This document shows positions 6,617-35,184 of a DNA stretch of 40,851 bases, one piece after another. The stretch lies in IMG/VR virus record IMGVR_UViG_2541047691_000017; one strand, 5' to 3'. The position numbers were made by a program, and so were the translations under genes. The notes beneath the pieces were generated by a model, which made no database searches, was not told where the DNA came from, and saw only the letters and a program-made list of their open reading frames with translations. Every line of letters starts with the position of its first letter. Within the stretch, counting starts at the first letter, position 1. This stretch comes from a virus (Duplodnaviria > Heunggongvirae > Uroviricota > Caudoviricetes).

Positions 6617-6631
6617 TTACCTTTCAGGTAA
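6617..6631. promoter_or_regulatory. Operator-like palindrome TTACC-TTTCA-GGTAA
   Basis: Exact TTACC-N5-GGTAA; upstream of the LexA box and the 6708 gene. Confidence 0.6.
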
Positions 6632-6668
6632 TTTGCAAAACGTGCTGGATAGCAAACAAATTATTTGC

Positions 6669-6688
6669 TACTGTATAAATATACAGTT
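6669..6688. promoter_or_regulatory. LexA box (SOS box)
   Basis: TACTGTATAAATATACAGTT matches the CTGT-N8-ACAG consensus (TACTGTATATATATACAGTA) at 18 of 20 positions; lies 20 nt upstream of ATG 6708. Confidence 0.75.
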
Positions 6689-6707
6689 ATTGCATGGAGA
6701 AGATAAG

Positions 6708-6965
6708 ATGCAGCAGTATCACTATCCACTGGAAGACGGATTTACCGAAAGGATTCACACGCCGGGAGGCGTCAGGTCACTGGTGGAGGGATCGCACTTG
6801 ATGAAATTACTCCGGGATCTCGATAAGGATGGATTTAATGTCGATGGCCCACTTGCCGAACTGACTGCACTGATTAACTACGTCACCAGCTCACAGATGT
6901 CTATGCAGGATCTGCAAACACATCTCGACTATTGTGCCGAACAATTACGAAAACAAACCAGATAA
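6708..6965 (+). CDS. Small antirepressor-like protein, standalone paralog of the antirepressor C-terminal domain
   Basis: 85 aa from ATG 6708 (MQQYHYP...). Aligns by eye with the C-terminus of the 7283..7933 product (IHTPGGV..SHLMKLL..DG.NVDGPLAELT..Y...DLQTH vs IHSPSGV..SLLMNLL..DGHDVSGAAAELT..Y...DIQTH). The longer listed ORF start at 6585 would place the LexA box inside the coding region. Confidence 0.6.
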   Translation: MQQYHYPLEDGFTERIHTPGGVRSLVEGSHLMKLLRDLDKDGFNVDGPLAELTALINYVTSSQMSMQDLQTHLDYCAEQLRKQTR

Positions 6966-6996
6966 GATTTGAAATTACCAAGTGGAGTGCTTATGT

Positions 6997-7011
6997 TTAC
7001 CTTTGAGGTAA
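6997..7011. promoter_or_regulatory. Operator-like palindrome TTACC-TTTGA-GGTAA
   Basis: Exact TTACC-N5-GGTAA between the 6708 gene and the antirepressor gene. Confidence 0.55.
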
Positions 7012-7101
7012 ATTTACATCGCACTCCTCTTGTGCCATAGTAATCGGGCACTGGCAAAATCCAGTGCCGGGATTGGTCTCCCGGATTACTAAGTGGCGCA
7101 T

Positions 7102-7124
7102 ACCACGCCAGACGTGGTTTTTTT
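7102..7124 (+). terminator. Weak intrinsic terminator
   Basis: Stem ACCACG/CGTGGT around a 5-nt loop followed by T7; downstream of the 6708..6965 gene. Confidence 0.3.
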
Positions 7125-7282
7125 ATGCGTATAGCACAGTCATGCCAGAATTATGGTGGGCTGAATGGGGGTCCGAAAGGACGCCGGTACCACTTAGGCC
7201 GGTAAGACCAACTCCGTTCAGTTCACCACCATCTGATTGGTCTCAGCGGTGGTGATGTAATTCGCTAAGTGGAGACGCCATA

Positions 7283-7933
7283 ATGAACGCTCAACTCATC
7301 CCCGTATTCAACGGCACTATATCCAACGAAACCGCTCTTCTCGTTAATGCCCGTGATTTACACACTTTCCTCGATGTGGGTAAGCGATTTGCTTCGTGGA
7401 TTGTCGAACGAATTTCTGAATATGGTTTCGTTGAAAATCAAGACTTTATGATTATTTCCCAAGTTCGGGAAAAAATAGGCAGAGGCCGTCCTGCAAAAGA
7501 CTACCACCTCACCCTCGATACAGCCAAAGAGCTGGCGATGGTCGAGCGTAACGAAAAAGGTCGTCAGGTACGACGCTACTTCATTGAATGCGAGAAACGT
7601 TTAAGACAACAAGAAACAAAAGTGGAGAAGGTCTTGTCAGGCTTCATGCCCGCCATTATGGAGGCGATCAAGCTGGAAGACAAAAAAGAATACAGTGCCC
7701 CACTGAAGCCCGGCTACCGTAGCCTGATTCATTCGCCGTCTGGTGTTCTCGGCCTGACGGAGAACTCACTGCTGATGAATCTGCTGAACCAGTTACAGGA
7801 CGACGGGCACGACGTATCGGGCGCGGCGGCGGAGCTGACCACCATGTTCTGCTACATCGTCGGTGTGAGCAAATGCCTGCGTGATATCCAGACCCACGCG
7901 GAGTACATCAACGACAAGGCAGGGTTCTTCTGA
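7283..7933 (+). CDS. Phage antirepressor (AntA/AntB-type N-terminal domain plus C-terminal domain)
   Basis: 216 aa; N-terminus (ARDLHTFLDVGKRFASWIVERISEYGFVENQDFMI) fits the AntA/AntB antirepressor domain pattern from memory; RBS GGAG before ATG. Confidence 0.7.
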   Translation: MNAQLIPVFNGTISNETALLVNARDLHTFLDVGKRFASWIVERISEYGFVENQDFMIISQVREKIGRGRPAKDYHLTLDTAKELAMVERNEKGRQVRRYFIECEKRLRQQETKVEKVLSGFMPAIMEAIKLEDKKEYSAPLKPGYRSLIHSPSGVLGLTENSLLMNLLNQLQDDGHDVSGAAAELTTMFCYIVGVSKCLRDIQTHAEYINDKAGFF

Positions 7934-7999
7934 CGGGCGGCGGCACAGGGATGTGCTTCTGACATAATCATTTGCGGTGTGATGTAGATTCACGTAAGA

Positions 8000-8014
8000 T
8001 TACCTTAAAGGTAA
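8000..8014. promoter_or_regulatory. Operator-like palindrome TTACC-TTAAA-GGTAA upstream of the 8041 cassette
   Basis: Exact TTACC-N5-GGTAA, 26 nt upstream of ATG 8041 and before its AGGAGG RBS. Confidence 0.55.
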
Positions 8015-8040
8015 ACCATGGGTTTACATGAGGAGGAGAT

Positions 8041-8250
8041 ATGGGATTTTGGTTCGCTCGTACAAAAACGAGGGATAATGCACCCAGCCCTCAGGCAAAA
8101 AATGCAGAAGTTCCGGCGTCAGCGCAGGTTAACAAGCGTGGTGGAGTATATATCTCATCACAGCAAATTTCTGAGCTTCCTGAGGTTAAGGAGATGCGTC
8201 GTCTCGCTGCTGCAATTGTTAAACAGGATCTTGCCACTGTAAGGAAATAG
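8041..8250 (+). CDS. Small hydrophilic protein of unknown function, first gene of accessory cassette
   Basis: 69 aa; strong RBS (AGGAGG) before ATG 8041; stop TAG overlaps the GTG start of the next gene (TAGTG). Confidence 0.55.
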   Translation: MGFWFARTKTRDNAPSPQAKNAEVPASAQVNKRGGVYISSQQISELPEVKEMRRLAAAIVKQDLATVRK

Positions 8251-9116
8251 TGTTGTTAGCTCTTCTAATTATCCCCATTCTGGTTAGTGGTTATATTATG
8301 ATAACCGCTAACCAGTATCATTATTTCCGTTTATACCGACATGAAGGCCAGCTTCTTTATATGAAAGTAGCTGCATTAGGTACATATTGCCTTGTTGCAT
8401 CAGTAATAATTGCAGCCGCTATAAAATATAAATGGCCTGATTTTCACCTAGTTCACGATATGGTGGAAACTTTTAATGTAACATCAAAACCAGAAACAGA
8501 TAGAATTTACATGTGGCTGCTTCTTCTCTCAGCCACATCCATTTGCTTCTCTTTGTGTTATGTGTCTGTTGTGTGGGTGAAAGATTTTCTTCTTGGTTGT
8601 TTTTATAAACGTGATATTTACGAGCAAAAAACAGAGGCAATGAAGGCCAGAGTACTGCGAAAAACTTACTCGCAAGGTTCTTTAGACTTACTATTGCTTG
8701 ATGCTATTGAATCGGATCCTAAACGACCAATGTTGATTACTTTATCATCAAACAAAGTGTATGTTGGAATAATAAATGGTTCTGGTGAACCAACGGAAAA
8801 TCAGGGTCCGCATCAGCACATATCTTTTGTTCCTTTAATGTCAGGATACAGGAACAAAGAAAACTTATCTGTCACATTCACTAATGCTTATCCAGGAGAA
8901 ATACAGGTCAAGCGGACTGCAGCAATAAGAGGAATTAGCAGAAAGAAAGTGCTAGGACTTGAGATCATGGTGTCTATTGACGAAATAAGTTATATATCAT
9001 GGTTTGATTTTGAAGTATATAAAGCAACAAATAACAAAGTAGAATCCAGGGGGCACGTTATTCGTGTTACCAAAAATGGAAGAAATATATATCAAAGAAA
9101 TAGCAAAAAAGAATAG
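8250..9116 (+). CDS. Membrane-anchored protein of unknown function (three predicted N-terminal TM helices, about 170-aa soluble C-terminal domain)
   Basis: 288 aa; GTG start with AAGGA RBS 5-6 nt upstream, translationally coupled to 8041..8250; markedly AT-rich relative to neighbours; followed by a strong terminator. Confidence 0.6.
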   Translation: MLLALLIIPILVSGYIMITANQYHYFRLYRHEGQLLYMKVAALGTYCLVASVIIAAAIKYKWPDFHLVHDMVETFNVTSKPETDRIYMWLLLLSATSICFSLCYVSVVWVKDFLLGCFYKRDIYEQKTEAMKARVLRKTYSQGSLDLLLLDAIESDPKRPMLITLSSNKVYVGIINGSGEPTENQGPHQHISFVPLMSGYRNKENLSVTFTNAYPGEIQVKRTAAIRGISRKKVLGLEIMVSIDEISYISWFDFEVYKATNNKVESRGHVIRVTKNGRNIYQRNSKKE

Positions 9117-9136
9117 CCCGCGCTGCGGGCTTTTTT
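9116..9136 (+). terminator. Strong rho-independent terminator after the accessory cassette
   Basis: Stem GCCCGC/GCGGGC with 3-nt loop, then T6, immediately after stop codon 9114-9116. Confidence 0.75.
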
Positions 9137-9208
9137 GTGGACGAAACAAAAGTCAGTGCTACACTCATTGACGCCACATTGAGGTGGCTTATAGATGGAA
9201 ATGTCACA

Positions 9209-9370
9209 ATGAAAAAAGCATTTGCTGCACTGTTCGTTTTGTTGTCTCTGGTAGCTTCAACTCAGGCCTTTGCCGGTCGTTGTCAGCACGACAGCGACAC
9301 TGCTGCTGACGGCTCACGCTGCGGTGGGCGTTCTGCGGATTCCCGCCCAGGCGGCGGTGGCATTCGTTAA
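9209..9370 (+). CDS. Small secreted Cys-containing protein (53 aa)
   Basis: ATG 9209 gives MKKAFAALFVLLSLVASTQAFA signal peptide then a Gly/Ser/Asp-rich 31-aa mature peptide with Cys residues; the longer six-frame ORF start at 9137 lacks support. Confidence 0.4.
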   Translation: MKKAFAALFVLLSLVASTQAFAGRCQHDSDTAADGSRCGGRSADSRPGGGGIR

Positions 9371-9393
9371 AAACAAGGCCGCGAAAGCGGCCT

Positions 9394-9405
9394 GTGACAT
9401 GTCAC
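9394..9405. repeat. Palindrome GTGACATGTCAC, copy 1 of 3
   Basis: Perfect 12-bp palindrome; its TCA is the stop codon (reverse strand TGA) of the 9402..9698 gene; preceded by hairpin GGCCGC-GAAA-GCGGCC. Confidence 0.7.
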
Positions 9406-9698
9406 GTCCCTTTTCTGAATGATAGCCATTCGAAAAATGATGACATTCCACCGCAGACAATAGCAAAGATGATCCCACCAAAGAAGAGAAGGCCAGCCTG
9501 CCACCACTCCCACCGCCATACATCCACAGCGCCAACCATACCAACAATCGCTCCAACAAATGGAATATAGCTCACGATGAAAGCAATGGGGGCTGCAATT
9601 ATCCAGTGCAATCCCCACCATGATTCAAGCCCAGCCATAATTGCTGCCAACTGAAAAAGACCAACGACGATATAAACAATGAATCCTATAGCTTGCAT
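9402..9698 (-). CDS. Small inner-membrane protein (3 TM helices), unknown function
   Basis: Start at ATG 9696-9698 with RBS AGGTGA; about 98 aa, almost entirely hydrophobic helices; convergent with the 9209 gene. Confidence 0.5.
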   Translation of the reverse strand: MQAIGFIVYIVVGLFQLAAIMAGLESWWGLHWIIAAPIAFIVSYIPFVGAIVGMVGAVDVWRWEWWQAGLLFFGGIIFAIVCGGMSSFFEWLSFRKGT

Positions 9699-9894
9699 GT
9701 AGTCACCTAATTTACCCAGTAAAAATAAGAGGCCTCCCCTCAATAAGGCTTGCAACAAGAACTACTCCCTGCACAACAAAGATGAACCAGCAAATAGCTT
9801 GAGTCTGAGGGTTAAGAAAATATTTGTAGCGGTCAATAAATAACAATCCACCAGAAATTATCACACTCAAAATAATTAAAAACACAACACTTCC

Positions 9895-12369
9895 TTATTG
9901 CGGAGTGACATCCTGTGGTCGCCACCAGTATGTCTGGTTAAACTCTTTCTTCGAACGTTGCTCCATTTTACGCAAATAACCTGGTGAAAAATACTCCTGC
10001 ATCTGGTTAAAGATCATGTGATCGAGAGCCGCCTTTAAGTACCAGAGATTCGCACCTGGCATCAGACCTTTCCCCAGCTTAACCAGATCACCACCAGTCT
10101 GCTCATTCTTCCCTTCCACAGCATTTAACGGTATGCCCTGAGCAATCTTCACTACGTCATCAACCAGACCAGCTACCGGGCCAAGCATCGACGCCAGCGC
10201 GCCGCTTCCGTACCTAGTGTGATCTGACAATAAAAAGTCACCGTAAAGGCCAAGACCACCACCTTTCAGTAGAGCACCAAGCCAAAATTTAGCAGCATCT
10301 TCTCCTGTCATCTCGCGAGGATTACGACCAGACGCAAGGTCGTTAAGTTGCTGCGACAAAGCGCCAAGAATGGTCGTACTGGCAATAAACGTCGCAATAT
10401 ATGCCGCACGCCCACCAGCCGACGGCATACCCATAGCGCGTGACCAGTGACGCATAACCACCGAGATAGGGAACGATTTAAACAGGAAAACACTTCTCGT
10501 TAATTCACCTTTCCATGTTCCACGCTGAATACCAGAACCGGTTATCAGTTGCTCACGTGCACCCGGTGTAATAACAGCCATATCAACTTCTTCAGTTACG
10601 GCACCGAGCAGTTTACGCATTGCCTCAAATTTCACGCGTTCAGGCTCACCAAGATGTTTAACTGCTGAATCAGGGATACGCATAATGCTTTCCGGTGTCA
10701 GCATCGTATTATTACCGTTCCCCCAGTCCTCCTGTTGCGCCAGCTTCCATACGCTCCAGTCTGTGTCAGTAATCCCTTTGCTTTTCAGGATACGAAAATC
10801 AGAATCATCGAGGCTACGAAGGTCTGGTGTCCGTGACACTACTTCTCCCAGGCTTCCCATCATGGTTACGCCATAGGCGCGCTTGTGCGCATCTGACCAT
10901 GCTGTAAGCCCACTGGCACGCATTACCACCGTTGCAGCCCAACGAGACACAGACGGCCCCATATTATCCATCGCCCAGCGGTTAACGCTGCCAAGTAGAG
11001 ATTCCATCGCCAGACCAGCGCGGCGCGCCCGCGCAAGTTCTGTACGGTTCGTTGGGTCCATAGCTTCAAGCTGGTTGCGGAATAACTGGTTCATTGGAAG
11101 GTTGGTAACCTTCGCAGACAGATACATGGTTCCAAGATCAGAGAACGATGACAGCAACGCGGATCCGAGTCTGCTGGCAACCAGCCAGTTGCGGATATTG
11201 TCAGACCATCGCGCGATGTGCGGATTCGCTACAGGCTGTGTCTTTCCGGAAATAAAGTTGTACAGATTCTCTGTGTTGTTCGCCAGCCGCTCGACTTTAC
11301 CGGTTTTACTCGGGTTAGCTGTTGCCGTTTCTGCCTTCACCTGATCAAGAAGAGAGCGGAAAACATGATCGGGGTTTGGGCCATATGTTTCCACCAGTGC
11401 AATATCTTTACTGATACCTTCCAGGTGACCGACCATGATTTCCCATAGAGAGCGATCGCCATAAAGTTGCTGATATTGCAGATAGGAATCTGCATCTTTG
11501 AAATGTATCTGTCGTGATGCATTACCCCGGTTAGCACGTGCGCCGGAAATTCGCATTCCGGTATCAGTAAGCTTATTCAGCCCACCAGTAGCGATCGTGT
11601 TATAAGCCTCTCCAAGAAATGCAGACAACTCGGCATCGTTCATCAGTTGTCCATCGACTCGGGTATAATATTTGCGATCCAGCTTACCTATAACATCGCT
11701 AACCCACTTATCCTTTGATACCGCCCCAACCTTTTCCATAGAATGATGTTGAGGGAGCCCCCAGTTTTCGAGATAGCCAATGTCCCCACCAGCATCATTA
11801 AACCGGCGGCGCAGTAGCTCTGTCACTTCTCTCCACGCCTTAGCACCTTTTCTTGCTTTAGCATTGCCAGTATTTTGCCCTCGCATTTCATATACCAGGT
11901 CACGCACGCCAGCTTCATCTTCAAACAGGCCAAAAAAGCGAGGATCAACTGCTTCAAATGCCTCCTGCAATTGACTCAATGCATAATCACGAGTGGCTTT
12001 TGTTCTGGATTCAACAGAGAGGAAATTCGATTTACCGTCTGCATTAAAAGCAATAGTACGGTTAAGAGCGCCAAGTTTCCCATCAGCCCCTTGATAGCTA
12101 TTGATAAATTTATCCAATCTCTGACGTGCGGCTATAGTGAGGGCCACACGACGTTTCTTTAATGCCGCTTCTCGCTGTAATTCTTCAGATGCCAATTGTG
12201 CTGCTCGATATAGCCGCTCTGATTCGGAAAGTTGTCGCCACGACATAGGGTCATCACGAGCAATGGAGCGCATATTTCGATAAATGCGGTCTTCAATGTT
12301 CTGTATTTCTCGCGCCGTTAACATGCGCTGCGCCGCCTGCTGAACCGCTTGTATACATTCCTGTCTCAT
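9895..12369 (-). CDS. Internal virion (ejection/core) protein, large
   Basis: 824 aa; last of a run of large co-oriented genes after the tail tubular genes, as with podovirus internal core proteins; no specific motif recognised. Confidence 0.55.
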   Translation of the reverse strand: MRQECIQAVQQAAQRMLTAREIQNIEDRIYRNMRSIARDDPMSWRQLSESERLYRAAQLASEELQREAALKKRRVALTIAARQRLDKFINSYQGADGKLGALNRTIAFNADGKSNFLSVESRTKATRDYALSQLQEAFEAVDPRFFGLFEDEAGVRDLVYEMRGQNTGNAKARKGAKAWREVTELLRRRFNDAGGDIGYLENWGLPQHHSMEKVGAVSKDKWVSDVIGKLDRKYYTRVDGQLMNDAELSAFLGEAYNTIATGGLNKLTDTGMRISGARANRGNASRQIHFKDADSYLQYQQLYGDRSLWEIMVGHLEGISKDIALVETYGPNPDHVFRSLLDQVKAETATANPSKTGKVERLANNTENLYNFISGKTQPVANPHIARWSDNIRNWLVASRLGSALLSSFSDLGTMYLSAKVTNLPMNQLFRNQLEAMDPTNRTELARARRAGLAMESLLGSVNRWAMDNMGPSVSRWAATVVMRASGLTAWSDAHKRAYGVTMMGSLGEVVSRTPDLRSLDDSDFRILKSKGITDTDWSVWKLAQQEDWGNGNNTMLTPESIMRIPDSAVKHLGEPERVKFEAMRKLLGAVTEEVDMAVITPGAREQLITGSGIQRGTWKGELTRSVFLFKSFPISVVMRHWSRAMGMPSAGGRAAYIATFIASTTILGALSQQLNDLASGRNPREMTGEDAAKFWLGALLKGGGLGLYGDFLLSDHTRYGSGALASMLGPVAGLVDDVVKIAQGIPLNAVEGKNEQTGGDLVKLGKGLMPGANLWYLKAALDHMIFNQMQEYFSPGYLRKMEQRSKKEFNQTYWWRPQDVTPQ

Positions 12370-12374
12370 TTAAT

Positions 12375-17696: not shown

Positions 17697-20167
17697 CAGA
17701 ATCCCCCAACAGTAAGGCGAGGAATAACGGCAAGAACAGACAGCGGCAACGGATCAAGCTGACGGATTTTTACACGTCCGTTTTTGCCCCAGTTACTGTC
17801 CAGTTTCACTTCTACTTTTCCGGTAGCATCATCAACAGGATCATCGTAGAACTCGAATTCACGCTGTGGATATTCGTACCATTTACCGCCGGGCGTAGTC
17901 GCCCAGATGCCGCGACTGGCATTCACAACCAGAGTAACGGAGGGGATCACCTGTTTTTTGTCCAGCAGCGTTTCCTGTCCGTTAATGTTGATATCCAGTG
18001 TTTCGAATTCAGCAGTTATTGGCATGCCGATGTGCACTACAGCCCCCGGAGATTCCAGCGTGACGGCACCTCCGGAAACCACTTTCTGTGGTTCCACGTT
18101 CGCATCAGAGAGAATGTTTACGGTCTGGCCTTCAAGATGAGACAGGCCTCCAAATGTCCGGCGCGCCATCTGCCAGTTCGTGGTGGCCACATTCCTGAGG
18201 GATGGCGGGACGTTCCTGTTAGCACGAACCACTACAGCGGTATTGCTGGTTACAGAAATAATGTCGCAACGTAATTCTTTTGACACTTCATCGCCAGTAT
18301 CAGGATCAGTTCCGGTATAAGGGAACTGTAGTTGCGCGCCGACATCACTACTGGTGAAGTACGCACCACCAGAAACACTGATTGTATATTCCGCACGGTA
18401 ATCCCATTCACCAGAACCACCAGTGATGGTCATCGTTCTGTCAGACGTATTTCTTCCATCATAGCTAAGGCCAGAATCAACAAAGAAAGCATCTTCATCG
18501 CTGGTAAATAAACGGCTGGACAGTCGCTCGATGTATCTCACTGTTTGCCCGTTAACGGTTCGGTTAATGACGAAATACACCGCATCTTCATTGCCTTCGC
18601 TGATACTGCATGTGCTTTCATATTTTCCGGTACTGGACTGTGGTGCCCATGCAAAAACCTGTTGATCACGCAAATAGGTCATCACCAGTAATTTACCGTC
18701 ATCACGAATGCAGAAGGCGCTGGAGTAAGGGACAATAGAGAAGCACCAGTCAACAATGCTGTGCTTCTGAAAAAGATGATTGGCAAGGATAGTAAGGTCG
18801 TTCCCCTGATAGCCGTCAACATCGAATGAGTAGGCCAGATCACGGACAACACTGCCTTTCTCCTGGACGAACAGAGCAATATTCGCCACGGCAATTGGTG
18901 GGACATTGCTCGAACCATTTGATCCCTGAGAGCTGAATGCAAATGATGATGGAGTTAATACTTTGTTCTGGTCGCCGGTGATGACGTACTCACCTCCGGA
19001 AGTCAGTGCCACCAGCGAACCGACATCAATCAGGTGGCGGATCTCATTAACCTGACGCCCGGCATAGGTGTAGATAATTCTGTCGTCATCCTGCGTAGGA
19101 TTGCTTTTGCCAAAATCCTTATAATCCCCAGTACGGCTGGCCCAGATAGTCTGAGGGAACGCTGTCGATGCGGCGAAGTAAAGACGTTGTTGATAATAAA
19201 CAACCGTGCCAGGATAACCGTTAACACTGTTCCAGGCATATTTAGCCCATTTATAGCTGGCATTATCCTCGCCAACGACCTGCGAAGGGATATAGGAAAT
19301 CACCTCAGCAGTTGCAGTAGTGCCATTTACAGCAGTTATACGGGCAATGCCAAAACCACTGTGCAGATACTCCCACTCAATGCCAGTATCATCATCACCG
19401 GATCCGCCCCAGCCATCCCATGATGTGCCTTCTGTATGCGAAGGGCGCAAAGTGCCTGTTTTGCCTGCTGTAACGGCGCGATAGTAGTTACTGTCTGCAC
19501 GGCGAATATCGCCAATCGACGTACTCTTACTGGTTTCCCATACCGGCACAGAATCCACTGCAGGCTGTTCCAGATAGAACAATTTGCCTACCTGCTCCGC
19601 GCCAAAAATAGAGGCGCTTGCCGTTAACGTAATTGTCCCGGTGCTGGCGCTGGCATAAACCGTCACTGACTCATCAATATTGATATCTTCAAATGGCCCG
19701 TTCTTCGTTACCACATCAACCAGTTGCCAGTTGTCATGCGCATAGCGGCGCAGCTCTTTCGGCGGGTATGCCGGGTGAACCAGCGTAAGCACGTCGGCGC
19801 TTTGCGTGAATTTAATTCGGAACAGATCGGCTTCAGTATATGGCGTGGCAATTTCATAAATAACATTGCTGCTGTTCAGCACCAACGCACCATCTTTGAT
19901 AACGCGCATGTACTGGTGTCCGAACTCCAGAGCATAAGTCTGAACCGTCGAGAATTGGAACGGGATCAGGCGGCATTTCCGATTTGGGTATTTGGCGGCA
20001 CCGACAAAACGCGTACCAGGTCGATTCTCAACGCCGCCATACTGCCGCACGATAAAGTTATCGCACTTGCGCAATGCTACCTGGTACTTCGCCATGTCAA
20101 TACGCCCGTACAACGACGGTCCAATCTCACCACCGGCAAAGCTGGGCTGGATCCAACTGATAGCCAT
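17696..20167 (-). CDS. Tail tubular protein B (T7 gp12-like)
   Basis: 823 aa; N-terminus MAISWIQPSFAGGEIGPSLYGR resembles the start of T7-type gp12 as recalled (MALISQSIKNLKGGISQQPDILR); size and position match. Confidence 0.65.
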   Translation of the reverse strand: MAISWIQPSFAGGEIGPSLYGRIDMAKYQVALRKCDNFIVRQYGGVENRPGTRFVGAAKYPNRKCRLIPFQFSTVQTYALEFGHQYMRVIKDGALVLNSSNVIYEIATPYTEADLFRIKFTQSADVLTLVHPAYPPKELRRYAHDNWQLVDVVTKNGPFEDINIDESVTVYASASTGTITLTASASIFGAEQVGKLFYLEQPAVDSVPVWETSKSTSIGDIRRADSNYYRAVTAGKTGTLRPSHTEGTSWDGWGGSGDDDTGIEWEYLHSGFGIARITAVNGTTATAEVISYIPSQVVGEDNASYKWAKYAWNSVNGYPGTVVYYQQRLYFAASTAFPQTIWASRTGDYKDFGKSNPTQDDDRIIYTYAGRQVNEIRHLIDVGSLVALTSGGEYVITGDQNKVLTPSSFAFSSQGSNGSSNVPPIAVANIALFVQEKGSVVRDLAYSFDVDGYQGNDLTILANHLFQKHSIVDWCFSIVPYSSAFCIRDDGKLLVMTYLRDQQVFAWAPQSSTGKYESTCSISEGNEDAVYFVINRTVNGQTVRYIERLSSRLFTSDEDAFFVDSGLSYDGRNTSDRTMTITGGSGEWDYRAEYTISVSGGAYFTSSDVGAQLQFPYTGTDPDTGDEVSKELRCDIISVTSNTAVVVRANRNVPPSLRNVATTNWQMARRTFGGLSHLEGQTVNILSDANVEPQKVVSGGAVTLESPGAVVHIGMPITAEFETLDININGQETLLDKKQVIPSVTLVVNASRGIWATTPGGKWYEYPQREFEFYDDPVDDATGKVEVKLDSNWGKNGRVKIRQLDPLPLSVLAVIPRLTVGGF

Positions 20168-25873: not shown

Positions 25874-25941
25874 ATCAATGACTCCGTACGCAATTAAATT
25901 ATTACCAATTTAACCACATGTGATTTATTTATCGTAGATAC

Positions 25942-25978
25942 TTGACATTTAACGCACTAATTATTACCTTTCAGGTAA
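25942..25978 (+). promoter_or_regulatory. Putative promoter (-35 TTGACA) with downstream operator-like palindrome TTACC-TTTCA-GGTAA (25964..25978)
   Basis: TTGACA at 25942-25947; palindrome identical to the 6617 site; no clean -10 hexamer at standard spacing, so promoter strength is uncertain. Confidence 0.45.
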
Positions 25979-26300: not shown

Positions 26301-26377
26301 GTGGCATTAGCTCAGTTGGACAGAGCAACCGCCTTCTAAGCGGTTGGTCGCAGGTTCGAATCCTGCATGCCACGCCA
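26301..26377 (+). tRNA. tRNA-Arg (anticodon UCU), argU-like
   Basis: 77 nt folded by hand: 7-bp acceptor stem GTGGCAT/ATGCCAC, D-arm GCTC/GAGC, anticodon stem ACCGC/GCGGT with loop CTTCTAA (anticodon TCT), T-arm GCAGG-TTCGAAT-CCTGC, encoded CCA. Confidence 0.9.
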
Positions 26378-26420
26378 GAATCACGCCTAAGGACCGTGAT
26401 GCCAGAAGTTCCAGGGGCTT

Positions 26421-26463
26421 GGCGGTGATGGTTTCCCTTGAAGGACTATCACCGCCATTTTTA
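26421..26463 (+). terminator. Intrinsic terminator downstream of tRNA-Arg
   Basis: Stem GGCGGTGAT...ATCACCGCC followed by ATTTTTA. Confidence 0.55.
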
Positions 26464-26540
26464 CAGCAGGACGCCATTGCGATGACTTCATGCTGTAAAC
26501 CAGTACAGCCACGGGAGGCATAACTCATTGCCTCCAGTTC

Positions 26541-26563
26541 GCCCGGTTCGCCGGGCATTTTTT
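26541..26563 (+). terminator. Hairpin plus T-run (terminator or attenuator) just before the Gp49-like gene
   Basis: Stem GCCCGG/CCGGGC, loop TTCG, then ATTTTTT; lies 17 nt upstream of the RBS of the 26580 gene. Confidence 0.45.
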
Positions 26564-28517: not shown

Positions 28518-29110
28518 TGATTGCCATCCTGACGTTCTTTCAGTCTCTTCCTGGCTGCCGCTATGCGATCAGCAATTGTCACATTCACATTAACATCCAG
28601 GCGTTCTTTGAATGCGTTGACGTCGACGTGCTTACCAATCAGTTCGAGGTTCTTCACCTTGTCAGGCCATTTAATTTTTTTGAGGATTGTCTCTATCGAA
28701 TCCTCGTTCATGTTCATGATGGTCGATGACAGATCAAAGCCGCTAAGCGTAGTGCGCCAGATTTTCGGCCACTCTCGGATTGGCTTAAGGCTACCATCGT
28801 CGTTGAGGATGTCGATCACGTCCATCTGGTCGATCTCCACCAAGCGCATGAGAACGTAATCAGCACTGACGCGCATTCGTTTGTTGCGCTCCTCCATCAA
28901 CTCGGCAATCCGTTTTTGAATGCGTTCATCGCGCATCATGACACTGGCTTTAACTGCCGCTGTATTTGGGGAGAATCCTGCGTTAATCGCTGCCTGAGTC
29001 TGGTTTTCAGGCGTTTTGATGTATGACTGGCAATAAGCCTCCTGCATTGCTGTTAGTGGCTTAAATTGCGTTGATTTGCGTTTATAGGCTTTAGGTTCAG
29101 CAGGCATCAT
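28514..29110 (-). CDS. Terminase small subunit
   Basis: Immediately upstream of and overlapping the large subunit; start set at the MMPAEPK methionine (29108-29110), could extend to 29188; basic N-terminal region. Confidence 0.6.
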   Translation of the reverse strand: MMPAEPKAYKRKSTQFKPLTAMQEAYCQSYIKTPENQTQAAINAGFSPNTAAVKASVMMRDERIQKRIAELMEERNKRMRVSADYVLMRLVEIDQMDVIDILNDDGSLKPIREWPKIWRTTLSGFDLSSTIMNMNEDSIETILKKIKWPDKVKNLELIGKHVDVNAFKERLDVNVNVTIADRIAAARKRLKERQDGNQ

Positions 29111-29220
29111 AACCACCGTGGTAATAGTTACCGTTGTGGTAATAGTACCATGCAAAATAAAGCCGCCATAGTTGGCGGCAGTATTCAAACCCCATCAAAT
29201 TCATCATGCATAATCTACTC

Positions 29221-30121: not shown

Positions 30122-30690
30122 TTAACCTCCTGCGGCGGTTCCGGTAGAGGCATCCAGTACAAGGCGTTCCCTAACCACGATAAAGTGCCGTCGCTCAACT
30201 CCACGTATTCCCCTTGTACCTGTCCTGCCATATACTCGCCGTGCTTTGAATAAATTAAAATCCAATCATCTTGAGCGGGCATTCGCTCACTACAGCTTAT
30301 CCAACCATCCGGAGTTACCGGATAGTTGCCCGACAGCTCGTTCAACTTGTAAGTTTGGCTTACAGGTTCGGCTTCCAGTTCTGCAATGCGCTTCTCTGCA
30401 GCTTCCAGCTCAACGCGCAGCTTCCCTACCGTTAGCGCAATTTCCTCGTTCTCCTGGTCGCGGCGTTTGATGTATTGCTGGTTTCTTTCCCGTTCATCCA
30501 GCAGCGCCAGCACGGTTTCTGGTCCGGTCAGAAATTTGAAGGCGTTGAGCGCATCAATATCCACACCGTAATCCTTAAGTTCCTGTTCACTTAACAAATC
30601 ATCATCAACTGGCAACATTAACAGGCGTTCCATTGCCGGAATTGCACGTTCTGCCGCCTCACGCAGTGCCTGATAGTTAATTTTGGTCAT
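30118..30690 (-). CDS. Phage protein with C-terminal DUF551-like domain
   Basis: 190 aa; C-terminal motif W...YWMPLPEPP is typical of the DUF551 family (from memory); coiled-coil central part. Confidence 0.5.
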   Translation of the reverse strand: MTKINYQALREAAERAIPAMERLLMLPVDDDLLSEQELKDYGVDIDALNAFKFLTGPETVLALLDERERNQQYIKRRDQENEEIALTVGKLRVELEAAEKRIAELEAEPVSQTYKLNELSGNYPVTPDGWISCSERMPAQDDWILIYSKHGEYMAGQVQGEYVELSDGTLSWLGNALYWMPLPEPPQEVN

Positions 30691-30691
30691 A

Positions 30692-30991
30692 TCACATCCC
30701 CCTGAAGCCGTTGCATTTACGTAAAAAATCGCAGATATAGCCCTTCATTTTTTCGTGCCAATCTCGATCATTCCCATTGCACCAACCATCAGGTGGAGTC
30801 CAGTTTTCTATCAGAGCAGCCATTTTCTTTGCTTTCGCCGGAGTAGCTGTTGCGGTATCGCAGTAATGACGAGTGTCAACCAACGTATCCATACCATCGA
30901 TATCAAGTACGCAAAACCATGTGTGATTCGGCATTTCAACAGATGGTATTTGTTGCCCACGTCGACGTTTATCAATAAGACATACAGTCAC
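30692..30991 (-). CDS. Hypothetical protein
   Basis: 99 aa ORF, Cys/Trp-containing; 1-nt gap to the next gene. Confidence 0.35.
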   Translation of the reverse strand: MTVCLIDKRRRGQQIPSVEMPNHTWFCVLDIDGMDTLVDTRHYCDTATATPAKAKKMAALIENWTPPDGWCNGNDRDWHEKMKGYICDFLRKCNGFRGM

Positions 30992-31590
30992 TGGTTGCCT
31001 CCTTTGCGAAGCTGGGCAGCAAAGTCAACTAACCACTCAGTCATTTCAACCTTCCCTACCAGGTCTGAACCAGGGTGCATACAGCAATCACTCTGCGCCG
31101 CTTTGAAATCCTTATACTCATATTCTTGGGCCACCAGATTTTTTGCAGCTTCTATAGCAGCATCCACCCCCTGCGCCCGAATTTCAGCCAGGAAAGCATC
31201 GGTGGCTGGCATATTTCCTGTTGCCTTCATGGCCTCCAAAATAACCAGAACGCCATCTCGCCCAACCACCTCAGCGATAACCTCGGTGTTGTCGCCAACA
31301 ACATCGCAGAATGCCTGAACTGCCTTACGAGCCAGCTCATTCTCCGCCGCCAGCACCGAAAACTTCTCGTGCGCCAACTTAACAGCCGAATCAGCCTGCT
31401 TAATTGACTCAGTCGCTCTCTGGTGGTCTTCGGCCAGCGCATTAGCACGCACCAGTTGCACTTCCAGTTGCGTTGCCAAATCGCTGATCAGCTTTGCCAC
31501 ACTGCGCATATCAACGGCACCACATTCTGCTTTCAGTTCCGAAGCCATCTCATGCCCGGCGGAAACTAACCCTTTGATATTACTTTCCAT
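30988..31590 (-). CDS. Hypothetical coiled-coil protein (Ea22-like position)
   Basis: 200 aa, helical/acidic; overlapping stop/start with downstream gene. Confidence 0.4.
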   Translation of the reverse strand: MESNIKGLVSAGHEMASELKAECGAVDMRSVAKLISDLATQLEVQLVRANALAEDHQRATESIKQADSAVKLAHEKFSVLAAENELARKAVQAFCDVVGDNTEVIAEVVGRDGVLVILEAMKATGNMPATDAFLAEIRAQGVDAAIEAAKNLVAQEYEYKDFKAAQSDCCMHPGSDLVGKVEMTEWLVDFAAQLRKGGNQ

Positions 31591-31651
31591 CTTTACCCTC
31601 GCTTATCCACATAACTTATTGATTACATTGATAACTAAAAAGATCGTCGAT

Positions 31652-31999
31652 TCAGAACTCTTCGATGTTCCAGCCACCACCAGCTTTCTTTGGTTTAACC
31701 GTTACCCCGATGATTCGGAACGGATACTGATCTGCGGCGACTTTGGTTTTCACCCTGGCGTCGTCGGTCCAGAATCCCCCTTTCACTTCGTGCAGTTCCA
31801 TCTCTCCGGTGGCGAGCATCACAGCGAAATCTGGCGTATAGAACGTGTTGTCAGCTAACCGCAGCTTGATACCCTCAAATCGATACCAGACGATTTCTCC
31901 TGCACGTTTACGCATCTCAAGGTGCTGACAATACGCAGATTCTGTTTTGTTCATCTGGCCTGTTTTGAGTCGACCAAGAGCCTGTATCTGTTTTCTCAT
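31652..31999 (-). CDS. Putative small nuclease-fold protein (DUF1064/VRR-NUC-like)
   Basis: 115 aa; motif TPDF...ELHEVKG reminiscent of small PD-(D/E)XK phage proteins; operator-like palindrome immediately upstream. Confidence 0.4.
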   Translation of the reverse strand: MRKQIQALGRLKTGQMNKTESAYCQHLEMRKRAGEIVWYRFEGIKLRLADNTFYTPDFAVMLATGEMELHEVKGGFWTDDARVKTKVAADQYPFRIIGVTVKPKKAGGGWNIEEF

Positions 32000-32002
32000 G
32001 AT

Positions 32003-32017
32003 TTACCCCTGAGGTAA
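32003..32017. promoter_or_regulatory. Operator-like palindrome TTACC-CCTGA-GGTAA
   Basis: Exact TTACC-N5-GGTAA, 4 nt upstream of the start codon of the 31652..31999 gene. Confidence 0.5.
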
Positions 32018-32064
32018 TTAAAAACCACATAAGACAAGAAATCAATAGATTTTAGAATATTTTA

Positions 32065-32079
32065 TTACCTCATAGGTAA
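32065..32079. promoter_or_regulatory. Operator-like palindrome TTACC-TCATA-GGTAA
   Basis: Exact TTACC-N5-GGTAA in the intergenic region downstream of the P-like gene. Confidence 0.5.
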
Positions 32080-32116
32080 TTATTGAGACATAAAAAAATG
32101 CGCTATCGCGCTGGTA

Positions 32117-32917
32117 TTACTTGATAAATCCTGCCGCCTTTCCCCGCCTGTATTCCTCCATCAGCCACTGCGCCGGTGTTATTCCCCCCAGGGTGGCGGC
32201 GTTAGGCATGCACCCGAAACTTCGCCCTGGCGGGTGGTAAACGTCTCTCCCTGTGTCCGGAGGTGTACTCATGGGCTCTGGCTTTGCCTGTATGCTGATC
32301 ACCGGATCGGGTATCTGCTGTCCGGAAGCCACCTTTTTCGCCCAATCATCGAGCAGCCTGCGCGCGTGTTTCTCAACCTCAATCTCGCTAAGCTGGCGCT
32401 GATACATTGCACGGCGGGTATCACATACGACCCAGTACATAACCGGATGCCGCCACGGGAATCTTTCGGGACCACCAGGATATAAACTTTTTTCCTTGCT
32501 GTACCGGTGAAACTCCGCCATCACATCGTCAATGGTGACGCCAAGAACCATCTTGCTGTCTTTACACCACTTGATAAATTGCCCTGGCGACGGCCAGAAC
32601 GGAGATTCGCTGGCGCGGGCGTGGCGCATACCAGCAGAAACCTGTTCACGGGTTCGGATCCCACCTTCGGCAAACGCAGCAATCCACTGCTGTTTTGCAG
32701 CAACTTCCTGCTCTGGCGTCTTCAGGTTGGTTACCACTGCCGCCGGAAACAGTTGTTTCAGCTGTTTGAAAAGGGCATCAACAAGCCTCTCTGCTGACAT
32801 GTTCACCACGTTGTCATTGTTGGTGTACTGATGCTCATAACCTGACATGCGAGAAAGGGCTTCTCCGTCACGGTTTTGTATCGCGGTAAAAACGTTGTTC
32901 ACAAGAAATCCTCCCAT
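32117..32917 (-). CDS. Replication protein, lambda P-like (DnaB helicase loader)
   Basis: 266 aa; central region (LFPAAVVTN...QQWIAAFAEGGIRTREQVSAGMRHARASESPFWPSPGQFIKWCK) aligns by eye with recalled lambda P (FPASLANR...RQWVLAFRENGITTMEQVNAGMRVARRQNRPFLPSPGQFVAWCR). Confidence 0.8.
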   Translation of the reverse strand: MGGFLVNNVFTAIQNRDGEALSRMSGYEHQYTNNDNVVNMSAERLVDALFKQLKQLFPAAVVTNLKTPEQEVAAKQQWIAAFAEGGIRTREQVSAGMRHARASESPFWPSPGQFIKWCKDSKMVLGVTIDDVMAEFHRYSKEKSLYPGGPERFPWRHPVMYWVVCDTRRAMYQRQLSEIEVEKHARRLLDDWAKKVASGQQIPDPVISIQAKPEPMSTPPDTGRDVYHPPGRSFGCMPNAATLGGITPAQWLMEEYRRGKAAGFIK

Positions 32918-33714
32918 GCTTCAGGGCTGTTCCAGTGCGGAACGTTGTTATCAGGTAATGTTGATTGCTTCTGTCTGCTAATCTGCAGCCGCCTTGCCAG
33001 CTTCTGCTCCCACTGTGCCTGATGGTATGCCTTACCCTCAGCCATCCAGTAAATTCTGAACTCTGCAAGTTCCTGTGCCGTTGGCAGACTGTCCAGGTAG
33101 ATCCCCTGCAATGAGCTTTTCCGAAGAAAGTCATCTGATGGCTGCCATTGTTCATGCATGACAAATTTGCCTAATTGCCCTGGCCCACCAGGAGGAACAA
33201 AGTTATTCATCACGGCGTTGTTTGCGCCGGGGTCATGAGGCACAGAATCCCCGGTTTTTGTCCTGCTCTCCCTCTCTTGGTTAAATGACTGGTTATATGA
33301 CTGGTTCTGGATCCCGTTTTTGGGATCATTCAACATCCCGTTTTTGGGATCATTCAACATCCCGTTTTTGGGTATATTCCCGCTTTCGGTAACATTACCG
33401 TTTTCGGGTTCATTGCCCCCCTCCCGGTTGCCTTTAATGTTCCCGTTTTTGGTTATATTAAGAGAGAAAACCCGCACTCTTTTTGTCGCTCCCTTTCTCT
33501 CTCCGGTATCTGAAATAAGCCCCATTTTCATGAGCGATATAAGCCCGGCCTGCACGGTTTTTTTATTCAGGCAAGTGTCTTTAACGAGGCGTTCTATGCT
33601 GGGGTAGCATAGGTTATATTCATCGGCTCTGTCAGCCATCGAGAGCAGTATGAGCTTTAATGACGAGCTACCTGGATCTGTCTCCCAGGCCCAATCTGTT
33701 GCATGTCTGCTCAT
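32899..33714 (-). CDS. Replication initiator, lambda O-like, with internal iteron-encoded peptide repeats
   Basis: 271 aa; N-terminal HTH-type domain; central PKNGMLND repeats encoded by the DNA iterons; immediately upstream of the P-like gene. Confidence 0.7.
   Translation of the reverse strand: MSRHATDWAWETDPGSSSLKLILLSMADRADEYNLCYPSIERLVKDTCLNKKTVQAGLISLMKMGLISDTGERKGATKRVRVFSLNITKNGNIKGNREGGNEPENGNVTESGNIPKNGMLNDPKNGMLNDPKNGIQNQSYNQSFNQERESRTKTGDSVPHDPGANNAVMNNFVPPGGPGQLGKFVMHEQWQPSDDFLRKSSLQGIYLDSLPTAQELAEFRIYWMAEGKAYHQAQWEQKLARRLQISRQKQSTLPDNNVPHWNSPEAWEDFL
33312..33459. repeat. Iterons (putative origin of replication) inside the O-like gene
   Basis: Two perfect 24-bp tandem copies TCCCGTTTTTGGGATCATTCAACA (33312-33359) followed by four or more degenerate units with core CCGTTTT(T/C)GG. 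Confidence 0.7.
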
Positions 33715-33729
33715 GATTAATCTCCGCTA

Positions 33730-33930
33730 TCAGCTTGAATGTTGTGGGGAGGAATTAATCATGATCTGCTTAATCTCTGCCCTGATACGACGGTTTGATT
33801 CCATGGTGCACTCAACACAGTGTCCGTTGTAAACCCAACGTTCACTGTCATGTCCGTGCTTACATGGTTTTCCGGTGTAGTAGCGTTTAAGTCCGCGCTT
33901 TGCGGCATCAATACGTGTAATGATTTCCAT
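33730..33930 (-). CDS. Small Cys/His-containing protein (cII-position gene, function unknown)
   Basis: Start at ATG 33928-33930 (MEIITRIDAAKRG...); contains C-x-H-G-H...C-x-x-C; between the Cro-like and O-like genes. Confidence 0.4.
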   Translation of the reverse strand: MEIITRIDAAKRGLKRYYTGKPCKHGHDSERWVYNGHCVECTMESNRRIRAEIKQIMINSSPQHSS

Positions 33931-34010
33931 GGTAAGCCCTGTTATTAGTATTGGGATTACGGTCATTTTGTGCTGACACAAAAAAAAGATCAACCAGATT
34001 TGGTTTTTTA

Positions 34011-34025
34011 TTACCTTTGAGGTGC
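34011..34025. promoter_or_regulatory. Degenerate operator-like site TTACC-TTTGA-GGTGC
   Basis: Left half exact, right half 3 of 5; in the intergenic region downstream of the Cro-like gene. Confidence 0.35.
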
Positions 34026-34036
34026 GAATAGATATG

Positions 34037-34058
34037 AAAAGACCGCCGGGTGGCGGTC
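34037..34058 (-). terminator. Intrinsic terminator downstream of the Cro-like gene (tR1-like position)
   Basis: Perfect stem GACCGCC/GGCGGTC with 4-nt loop; on the minus strand it is followed by TTTT. Confidence 0.6.
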
Positions 34059-34080
34059 TACAGAGGGTTGTGGCTGGATA

Positions 34081-34311
34081 TCATGAGTAGAAGAAGTATG
34101 CCAGTTCTGCTTTTGAGCGCAGCCATTGTCTTGTTTTACAGGCTTTAAAAAGCCCATTCATCAATACTTTACCTGGCATTTTGCGCTTACCTGTTAAGTG
34201 AGTCTGGATATAGTGACTCGTCGTTCCGGCTTCCTGTGCGAAGGCTTCACGCTCATCCGGAGTAAGTGCAAGCCAGTGCTTTTTGAAATCGAAATGTCCG
34301 TTATCGCTCAT
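34081..34311 (-). CDS. Cro-like HTH regulator
   Basis: 76 aa; HTH-like segment (REAFAQEAGTTSHYIQTHLTGKRKMP); divergent from the repressor gene across an operator-containing intergenic region; followed by terminator and replication genes. Confidence 0.6.
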   Translation of the reverse strand: MSDNGHFDFKKHWLALTPDEREAFAQEAGTTSHYIQTHLTGKRKMPGKVLMNGLFKACKTRQWLRSKAELAYFFYS

Positions 34312-34347
34312 AGCTATTGCCTGATATTTATTTCAGATAATAAATAT

Positions 34348-34362
34348 TCACCCATAAGGTAA
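34348..34362. promoter_or_regulatory. Operator site 1 in repressor/cro intergenic region (TCACC-CATAA-GGTAA)
   Basis: 9 of 10 match to TTACC-N5-GGTAA; forms a larger inverted repeat with the 34379 site (CACCCATAAGGTAAC ... GTTACCTATGGGGTG). Confidence 0.55.
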
Positions 34363-34378
34363 CAAAAATCAAGGATAG

Positions 34379-34393
34379 TTACCTATGGGGTGC
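34379..34393. promoter_or_regulatory. Operator site 2 (TTACC-TATGG-GGTGC)
   Basis: Left half exact, right half degenerate; mirror partner of the 34348 site. Confidence 0.5.
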
Positions 34394-34395
34394 AT

Positions 34396-34410
34396 TTACC
34401 TGTTGGGTAA
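34396..34410. promoter_or_regulatory. Operator site 3 (TTACC-TGTTG-GGTAA)
   Basis: Exact TTACC-N5-GGTAA, 56 nt upstream of the repressor start codon. Confidence 0.6.
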
Positions 34411-34465
34411 TATTGCTTTAAATTGAATCATCTACTGATTCATATACGAGGCGATTTTCCAGAAA

Positions 34466-35050
34466 ATGAAAAGTATCCAGGACGTCCGCAGGCAAAATCT
34501 CAACGACTTGATCGACCGTGAATTCAATGGTGTTCAGACGCGGATGGCAGAAAAACTTGGAACTCAGGCAAATCTGGTAAACCGCTGGGCTCTTGGCAAG
34601 AAGGTTATCGGCGACCAGGTTGCGCGAAAAATTGAAGCTGCCGCCAATAAACCCCGTAACTGGCTTGATATCGATCGCTCGCTTTCTCAGGAAGGTTTTC
34701 AGCCTGTCGGCCCAAGCGACATTGGCCAGCTGGCGGCTCACAACCTGGAACGCTGGATGAGCGAAAGCCGCGACCTTTCAACACAGGGAAAACTTCACCG
34801 CGCATCCGGCGTCGCCCAGGTGACAATCAGCCGCCTGTTAAACAATGAGGTCAGCGTTTCCATTTCCACCCTGGAGAATGTTGCATCCGCATTCGGGCGT
34901 CACGGCTATGAATTACTGATTCACCCGCACGACCCTGCGACCATCAACTATGACCGCTCGCGCTACGCATTGTTACCCGAAACCGAGAAAGCAAAGATCG
35001 AAAGTTACATTGAATTTGTCATCAACCAGAACGAAAAAAACAAACAATAA
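34466..35050 (+). CDS. Prophage repressor candidate: tandem-HTH (two XRE-type HTH domains) protein without an autocleavage domain
   Basis: 194 aa; HTH-like segments TRMAEKLGTQANLVNRWALGKK and ASGVAQVTISRLLNNEVSVSISTL; no Ala-Gly / Ser-Lys peptidase S24 module seen; divergent from Cro-like gene. Confidence 0.6.
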   Translation: MKSIQDVRRQNLNDLIDREFNGVQTRMAEKLGTQANLVNRWALGKKVIGDQVARKIEAAANKPRNWLDIDRSLSQEGFQPVGPSDIGQLAAHNLERWMSESRDLSTQGKLHRASGVAQVTISRLLNNEVSVSISTLENVASAFGRHGYELLIHPHDPATINYDRSRYALLPETEKAKIESYIEFVINQNEKNKQ

Positions 35051-35107
35051 AATCATATTTTTCAGTAAGTAAGCCGCCTTCTGGCGGCTTTTTTATTGCC
35101 TATACTA

Positions 35108-35122
35108 TTACCTAATGGGTAA
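35108..35122. promoter_or_regulatory. Operator-like palindrome TTACC-TAATG-GGTAA (OL-like)
   Basis: Exact TTACC-N5-GGTAA upstream of the early-operon promoter. Confidence 0.55.
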
Positions 35123-35141
35123 TTTTTTTAACTCATATCTA

Positions 35142-35184
35142 TTGACATCAAACCAAATACGCATAATTATTACCTAAACGGTAA
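35142..35184 (+). promoter_or_regulatory. Putative early promoter (-35 TTGACA at 35142-35147) with overlapping operator TTACC-TAAAC-GGTAA (35170..35184)
   Basis: TTGACA followed by AT-rich -10 candidates and an exact operator palindrome; precedes the rightward recombination operon (pL-like position). Confidence 0.55.

Follow-up and report, generated by a model that had tools for sequence, protein, structure and literature searches.

A dispersed palindrome as the probable operator of an SPC32H-type repressor in a phiV10/epsilon15-like prophage of Escherichia coli

The window analyzed here is the whole 40,851-nucleotide (nt) stretch of IMG/VR virus record IMGVR_UViG_2541047691_000017. It carries a podovirus prophage of the phiV10/epsilon15 type (genus Uetakevirus) that sits at the 3′ end of guaA and matches the copy in E. 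coli IHE3034 and avian pathogenic E. coli (APEC) O18 at 99.9% identity. The element under study is a 15-bp palindrome, TTACC-N5-GGTAA, with half-site centres 10 bp apart. In an earlier note on this DNA it was taken as the operator of one regulator, most plausibly the tandem helix-turn-helix (HTH) repressor, controlling the immunity switch together with the early operon and accessory units scattered elsewhere. Following the analysis below, the palindrome is very probably the operator of the prophage's SPC32H-type repressor, Rep, and is placed at nearly every promoter; this reading rests on sequence comparison. A single regulon of that kind fits all results. The genes, sites and predicted promoters of the switch, early-left and middle regions were as follows.

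32003..32017: P_mid downstream operator, 3 nt before the ATG of the DUF1064 gene
32017..32045, minus strand: P_mid promoter, TTGATT (32045 to 32040), 17 nt, TTTAAT (32022 to 32017), directed towards the DUF1064 gene; invariant in six phages
32065..32079: P_mid upstream operator, exact
34011..34025: half-degenerate operator, weak by score, after the cro terminator and upstream of the p42/replication genes
34081..34311, minus strand: gene of a Cro-like small HTH protein of 76 amino acids, divergent from rep; phrog_35, transcriptional repressor
34365 to 34337, minus strand: cro-like promoter, TTGTTA-17-TATTAT
34348..34362: cro-proximal O_R operator, one mismatch (left half TCACC, right half GGTAA), in the −35/spacer of the cro-like promoter
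34379..34393: middle O_R operator, two mismatches; the aligned copies of epsilon15, SPC32H and the Klebsiella phage are perfect
34396..34410: rep-proximal O_R operator, exact; GGTAATAT invariant in six phages
34466..35050, plus strand: rep, the prophage repressor gene, 194 amino acids, with an N-terminal HTH domain and a C-terminal HTH-like/tetramerisation domain
35108..35122: P_L upstream operator, ending 19 nt before the −35
35142..35170, plus strand: P_L-like early-left promoter, TTGACA-17-AATTAT, whose −10 shares its final T with the start of the operator at 35170
35170..35184: P_L downstream operator, covering about −7 to +8

Exact matches to the motif (TTACCNNNNNGGTAA) numbered 10 in the window, against 0.02 expected from dinucleotide-preserving shuffles, and matches with at most one mismatch numbered 12 against 0.59. 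For an unbiased scan, every 5-mer palindrome with gaps of 0-9 was counted in the window, phiV10 and SPC32H; TTACC-N5-GGTAA ranked first in all three. Its extended form is a-TTACC-T-n-W-n-A-GGTAA-t. On a curated gene map, non-genic DNA makes up 7.7% of the window and contains all 10 exact copies (P ~8e-12) as well as both one-mismatch copies. As a control on real DNA, the 98 kb of IHE3034 chromosome flanking the prophage was scanned, yielding 0 exact and 7 one-mismatch copies. The contention that the palindrome did not arise by chance was thereby borne out, and for the exact copies both checks proposed with it, on intergenic enrichment and on frequency outside the prophage (within these 98 kb), came out in its favour. 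As a set, the exact copies are real beyond doubt.

Matches with two mismatches numbered 25 in the window, 2 of them non-genic (~1.9 expected), and their frequency was at background in host DNA and in the coding sequence of the window alike. Extension of the regulon by two-mismatch scanning was dropped for this reason. Support for the sites at 34011 and 34379, which carry two mismatches each with GGTGC as the right half, therefore comes from homology: 34379 aligns with perfect copies in Salmonella and Klebsiella phages, and 34011 with NNACC-N5-GGTAAT, invariant in six phages. The twelve sites listed in the earlier note were thus of unequal quality. Nine are exact (6617, 6997, 8000, 25964, 32003, 32065, 34396, 35108 and 35170), 34348 has one mismatch, and 34011 and 34379 are weak by score and backed by conservation. 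The list was also too short, as the exact copy at 29128 and the one-mismatch copy at 29110, both before terS, had been missed; the regulon is larger than claimed, reaching terS and also the integrase gene just past the window end.

The motif is conserved at matching positions in 12 genomes. Exact copies numbered 8 in phiV10, 11 in epsilon15, 10 in SPC32H (at the same positions), 9 in Enterobacter phage Tyrion and 9 in Klebsiella phage BUCT711. Six further Enterobacterales prophages, found in one-genome-per-species data, share the layout around rep; they belong to Superficieibacter, Erwinia dacicola, K. pneumoniae, two Citrobacter species and Scandinavium. No exact motif copy was present in a Pseudomonas siphovirus whose match to the Rep N-terminal domain is only distant. 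In the intergenic alignments the half-sites, the −35 and −10 elements and their spacings are invariant, and the N5 spacer and flanks vary, which, as judged from the alignments, is a classic footprint. Spacers of the E. coli group are T-rich or mixed, those of the Salmonella group A/T-only.

Assignment of the motif to Rep was based on four lines of evidence: the annotation of epsilon15, the reported binding of SPC32H Rep to palindromic DNA, an overexpression experiment with phage ZX5 and the invariance of the recognition helix. In the GenBank record of epsilon15 (AY150271.2), seven features are labelled 'protein_bind: repressor / lysogeny' (12-27, 2931-2947, 19895-19911, 32479-32494, 32554-32570, 32616-32632 and 35906-35922), and 7/7 coincide with a TTACC-N5-GGTAA match. 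The phiV10 record has no operators annotated. Rep of this prophage matches SPC32H Rep (PDB 5D50_A) over its full length (residues 1-190, E 4e-42), so that naming the tandem-HTH repressor as the regulator was probably right. According to one citing paper, SPC32H Rep is a tetramer on palindromic DNA sites, each of its DNA-binding dimers is made up of subunits from both halves of this dimer of dimers, and the Rep tetramer is taken apart by tetrameric Ant (PMC9638917). In another, the Rep tetramerisation domain is likened to the DNA-looping domain of another repressor (PMC9986798). Rep has the same sequence as the phiV10 and vB_EcoP_ZX5 repressors (100% identity), and overexpression of the ZX5 repressor abolished free phage, with a drop of 99.97-99.99% in the transcripts for holin and endolysin (PMC9782041).

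The recognition helix N36-L-V-N-R-W41 is invariant in the genus, though Rep identity drops to ~42%; Rep pairs that are 42-45% identical overall keep an identical recognition helix and operator. Cross-repression might therefore occur among the phages of E. coli, Salmonella, Klebsiella and Enterobacter, and immunity specificity may lie elsewhere, for example in the Ant-Rep pairing or the N5 spacer. Outside the genus, a word-indexed protein search returned fragments only as relatives of the Rep N-terminal domain. A genome scan, by way of the MKSIxDxRR N-terminus, matched five distant loci (Paraburkholderia, Hydrogenovibrio, Thiomicrospira), which have different recognition helices and no TTACC-N5-GGTAA motif. 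A search of Rep for an S24 peptidase domain was negative, Pfam giving HTH families only, in two HTH-like regions. The SPC32H Rep-Ant-LexA switch was reportedly described by Kim & Ryu (2013, J Virol) and Kim et al. (2016, PNAS), with structures PDB 5D50 and 5D4Z.

In the gap that separates rep from the cro-like gene, successive O_R operators, three in all, lie 31 and 17 bp apart. At P_L, the operators at 35108 and 35170 bracket the TTGACA at 35142, in keeping with the description of two sites flanking the early −35. On the minus strand, P_mid has the same layout as P_L: an operator, 19 nt, the −35, 17 nt and a −10 sharing its T with the second operator. Both pairs (35108/35170 and 32065/32003) are 62 bp apart, centre to centre, and the spacing is 61-63 bp in every related genome with both copies; the pair alignments are free of indels apart from one base in the Klebsiella phage. 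A distance of 62 bp corresponds to about six helical turns. Since each promoter is bracketed by two operators on the same face, and the tetramer has two DNA-binding dimers, one Rep tetramer may bridge each pair.

Outside the switch, the P_L region and the P_mid region, the operators, the predicted promoters and the units next to them were located as follows.

6617..6631: operator in the divergent gap between the tailspike gene and ant, exact; 15 nt upstream of the proposed ant −35
6646 to 6674, plus strand: proposed ant promoter, putative, TGGATA (6646), 17 nt, TACTGT (6669-6674)
6671..6686: LexA box CTGTATAAATATACAG, perfect, overlapping the proposed ant −10; conserved in six phages
6708..6965, plus strand: ant, small SPC32H-type antirepressor, 85 amino acids (PDB 5D50_E, E 4e-47; phrog_450)
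6997..7011: operator abutting the isrK −35, exact; also ends a −10-like TATGTT (TTGAAA-17-TATGTT)
7013 onwards: isrK promoter, TTTACA (7013), 17 nt, TG-CATAGT (7041), TG-extended; the predicted start, 7048, is the first base of the Rfam isrK match
7048-7124, plus strand: isrK small RNA (Rfam RF01394, 67.7 bits)
7149-7233, plus strand: C4 antisense RNA, P1-type (Rfam RF01695, 61.2 bits)
7283..7933, plus strand: AntA-type antirepressor with an Ant-like C-terminal domain (Pfam AntA; phrog_377, phrog_450)
8000..8014: cargo-cassette operator, exact; TTGCGG (7972), 17 nt, TAAGAT (7995-8000), so that the −10 and the operator have the T at 8000 in common
8041..9370, plus strand: three-gene cargo cassette, 69, 288 and 77 amino acids (phrog_5739, 3630 and 3117)
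25964..25978: operator between gp3/portal (minus strand) and the tRNA unit, exact
26301..26377, plus strand: tRNA-Arg(UCU), followed by a strong terminator at 26420-26457
29110..29124: terS operator 2, one mismatch, 2 nt upstream of terS and overlapping its ribosome-binding site
29128..29142: terS operator 1, exact, 20 nt upstream of terS and abutting the extended −10
29150 to 29142, minus strand: terS extended −10, TGgTACTAT, kept as TGtTACTAT in Salmonella phages

The terS ATG was placed at 29107, the same start as in epsilon15, SPC32H and Tyrion, with the Pfam terminase domain beginning 18 residues on. At 25964, a TTGACA that is invariant in six phages (25942-25947, plus strand) lies only 16 nt upstream of the operator, so the left half of the operator probably serves as the −10; the hexamer AATTAT precedes it. 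This promoter points at tRNA-Arg(UCU) and its terminator, in agreement with the tRNA unit named in the earlier note. The tRNA gene runs opposite to the structural genes and overlaps the phiV10 p04 open reading frame (26307-26558, minus strand here), which is probably not a gene; in SPC32H the tRNA is annotated in the same relative orientation. Over the whole set, five or six promoters have a −10 hexamer whose last base is also the operator's first T.

The C-terminal 80 residues of the AntA-type protein are 40% identical to the small LexA-controlled Ant, so that the label of small antirepressor paralog was well chosen. Both antirepressors, differently controlled, probably target the same Rep. 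The cargo cassette gave no PADLOC hit and no Pfam hit and is absent from the other sequenced Uetakevirus phages; its genes are 27-34% identical to genes in unrelated phages. As the operator sits on its putative promoter, the cassette would be silent in the lysogen.

Several points weigh against Rep as the reader of these sites and against the regulon as drawn. Binding of Rep to the sites of this prophage is argued from its homologs. With a consensus scanner, promoter-like sites were no more frequent than in shuffled sequence, and several promoter assignments rely on weak hexamers, proposed on conservation and register and not on score. The operator at 6617 lies upstream of the ant −35, off the core promoter, and alone may not repress ant; with the operator 15 nt upstream of the −35, direct repression of ant is uncertain. 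In the gap between the tailspike gene and the lysis cassette (3088-3392) there is no operator, unlike in epsilon15; in epsilon15, phiV10, SPC32H and Tyrion an operator (exact or with a TCACC half) lies upstream of the first lysis-cassette gene. The same gap has no O-antigen acetylase gene either. Lastly, conservation of the Cro-like protein equals or exceeds that of Rep, and the motif, the Rep helix and the Cro-like HTH are all invariant within the genus. Because of this, comparative data cannot assign the motif to Rep alone.

A shared operator, read by both Rep and the Cro-like protein, is in our view less likely than not, though to be reckoned with. Lambda CI and Cro share operators. Here the cro-like gene is divergent from rep across the triple operator, its product tracks the invariant motif no less closely than Rep (58-84% identity across the genus, invariant HTH, invariant AGTTSHYIQ-HLT), and its HTH is weakly similar to the Rep N-terminal domain. 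That the 76-residue Cro-like protein, in place of Rep, should be the main reader is judged quite improbable from the same material, as the recognition helices of the two proteins differ, the epsilon15 record gives the sites to the repressor, SPC32H Rep is reported to be a tetramer on palindromic sites (PMC9638917), and the lysis genes were silenced by overexpression of an identical Rep (PMC9782041). Exclusive reading by the Cro-like protein is unlikely.

Some of the copies might halt RNA polymerase during elongation, as stoperator-like roadblocks; the candidates are 29110, which lies between the putative terS promoter and the start codon, and 34011. In cluster A mycobacteriophages, repressor sites spread over the genome are known to block elongation (PMC9283540), and both candidates lie just downstream of terminators that close upstream operons, at points where read-through would carry polymerase into late or replication genes. 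Set against this, most of the sites fall on promoter-like elements, and as palindromes they offer no orientation bias to test; an extended −10 abuts 29128, and a −35-like TTGATC follows 34011. Roadblocking is hence considered improbable, though somewhat less so than a main role for the Cro-like protein.

It is very improbable that the repeats are non-regulatory module-boundary or recombination sequences at cassette junctions. Variable cargo does lie directly downstream of several copies (8041-9370 here, and other genes that follow the post-ant site of Tyrion and of the Klebsiella phage), but the perfect dyad, the 10-bp half-site spacing, the fixed −35/−10 register, the strict 61-63 bp pairs and the triple array in the rep/cro gap fit protein binding, and recombination could be a by-product of the repeats. 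A chance or compositional artefact, to which the background rates of one- and two-mismatch versions in host DNA and coding sequence might point, is already refuted for the exact copies (10 against 0.02-0.04 expected, all non-genic, none in 98 kb of host DNA, conserved in 12 genomes) and is scarcely credible at all.

With Rep as the reader, the following course of events is proposed, building on the sites, enrichment, conservation, geometry and protein homologies observed in this analysis. Each 15-bp palindrome would be read by a dimer of Rep N-terminal HTH domains, and the tetramer, made up of two such dimers, could hold two operators at once. P_L and P_mid are each bracketed by operators 62 bp apart, one 19 nt upstream of the −35 and the other at about −7 to +8. 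Promoter-like elements at terS, tRNA-Arg, the isrK/C4/AntA unit, the cargo cassette, the ant/tailspike gap and the integrase gene likewise carry single or tandem operators. In the lysogen, Rep would in this way directly silence almost every transcription unit. Induction would proceed via LexA: SOS cleavage of LexA would free the ant promoter, and Ant would then pull Rep off the DNA.

By every tested feature, the system belongs to the epsilon15/SPC32H Rep-Ant-LexA family; a full-length Rep, a small Ant, a LexA box on the ant promoter and operators at matching promoters were all found here. With epsilon15 it shares the same 15-17 bp dyad, ATTACC-N5-GGTAAT, and the map positions at terS, upstream of gp3, in the ant/tailspike gap, at P_L and upstream of the RuvC/DUF1064 gene. 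The binding sites of the epsilon15 repressor were reportedly described by Kropinski et al. in 2007 (Virology 369:234). The Rep proteins of the two, however, are only 42% identical, and this prophage has additional operators at 6997 (isrK/C4/AntA) and 8000 (cargo) and lacks the one at the lysis cassette. The epsilon15 record annotates neither the O_R copies nor the partner site (35969) that completes the 62-bp pair before RuvC. SPC32H has homologs of Rep and Ant and a LexA box on the ant promoter; there, LexA reportedly controls ant and Ant inactivates an uncleavable Rep (Kim & Ryu 2013, as summarised in PMC7380047). It differs in being without a second antirepressor, whereas this prophage has an AntA-Ant fusion behind the isrK and C4 RNAs.

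Among more distant systems, P1 C1 likewise combines one repressor with many dispersed operators, 22 in P1, but the P1 operator is an asymmetric 17-mer, ATTGCTCTAATAAATTT (PMC8546580), and here it is a perfect dyad. The repressor families probably differ as well, the nearest structural relative of Rep being 5D50. The c4-ant (immI) arrangement of P1, with a C4 antisense RNA upstream of an antirepressor gene, is found here as well. P1 uses a C1-controlled late activator, Lpa; in this prophage the operator sits directly on terS in contrast to the Lpa route. Cluster A mycobacteriophage L5 resembles the prophage in global silencing through >20 repressor sites genome-wide, yet its sites are asymmetric, monomer-bound, orientation-dependent 13-mers that stop elongation (PMC9283540), unlike the palindromes on promoters seen here. 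With lambda it has in common the divergent repressor and cro genes, the three operators between them (34348, 34379 and 34396) and operators that overlap early promoters. The operators here occupy nine or more regions, against two in lambda, with exact copies also at 6617, 6997, 8000, 25964, 29128, 32003 and 32065, so that the earlier description as a distributed network rather than a lambda scheme held up. In addition, Rep is without the S24 autocleavage domain and induction would run through an antirepressor.

A second block, ATGTGGTT, was noted a few bases upstream of GGTAAT or TTACC half-sites at 6561-6584, 25895-25919 and 32017-32030 (minus strand), that is, before the tailspike gene, gp3/portal and P_mid. 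These blocks are invariant or nearly so in six phages, and a lone TTACC with a −10-like TAGAAT hexamer lies before the tailspike gene. As a second motif it was rejected, 3 copies being found against 1.6 expected, and it is not kept exactly in SPC32H or the Klebsiella phage; it could be a late-promoter element or the site of another regulator.

At the edges of the window and within the replication region, the following features were recorded.

1-516: yfgH, a host gene that PHROGs mislabels as a DNA methyltransferase
532-1071: yfgI, a host gene
1163-1179: att core, one mismatch
32899-33714, minus strand: DnaT-like replication gene, holding tandem repeat arrays

The repeats, at 33278-33414, comprise units of 24 bp (x2.6, 100% identity), 18 bp (x2.9) and 12 bp (x2.4) and look like origin iterons. 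The window ends at the start codon of the integrase gene, and the integrase-proximal operator and the guaA att site lie outside it. That operator, which is conserved, reads ATACCTTTAAGGTAA in the IHE3034 copy (1085-1099 of that locus), and 43 bp separate it from the integrase ATG downstream. In ~477/5,426 complete E. coli genomes (~9%), phage lysis genes were joined to yfgI.

The operator network itself is a rediscovery, being annotated in epsilon15 and implicit in the work on SPC32H, and is new only for this prophage; the basic epsilon15/SPC32H picture is unchanged by these results. What may be new are the strictly conserved 62-bp pairs that bracket promoters, the shared −10/operator junction, the operator-controlled extended −10 at terS, and the operators on the isrK/C4/AntA unit and the cargo cassette; these four features stand as hypotheses and not as established facts. 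Tentatively, and with the odds in our view against it, a flat single-repressor architecture may be proposed for these phages, in which the Rep tetramer clamps key promoters via the 62-bp pairs and directly silences every transcription unit. If true, the silenced units would include late terS with its extended −10, the integrase gene, the tRNA, both antirepressor units and the new cargo; Ant would derepress the entire genome in one step, with no cascade of late-gene activators, and operator-bearing promoters would be plug-in sockets for new cargo.

Prophages of this family sit at guaA in ~9% of complete E. coli genomes, including the extraintestinal pathogenic E. coli strain IHE3034 and APEC O18, and relatives are used as O157 reporter phages. 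A 'trans' mode of binding by the tetramer was reportedly proposed from the SPC32H structures, and the conserved 62-bp pairs offer a simple test of it. For the prophage, two antirepressor routes, the LexA-controlled Ant and the isrK/C4-controlled AntA-Ant, would converge on one repressor, and the full operator map provides a testable wiring diagram of the lysis-lysogeny switch, indicating the units that Rep could silence directly.

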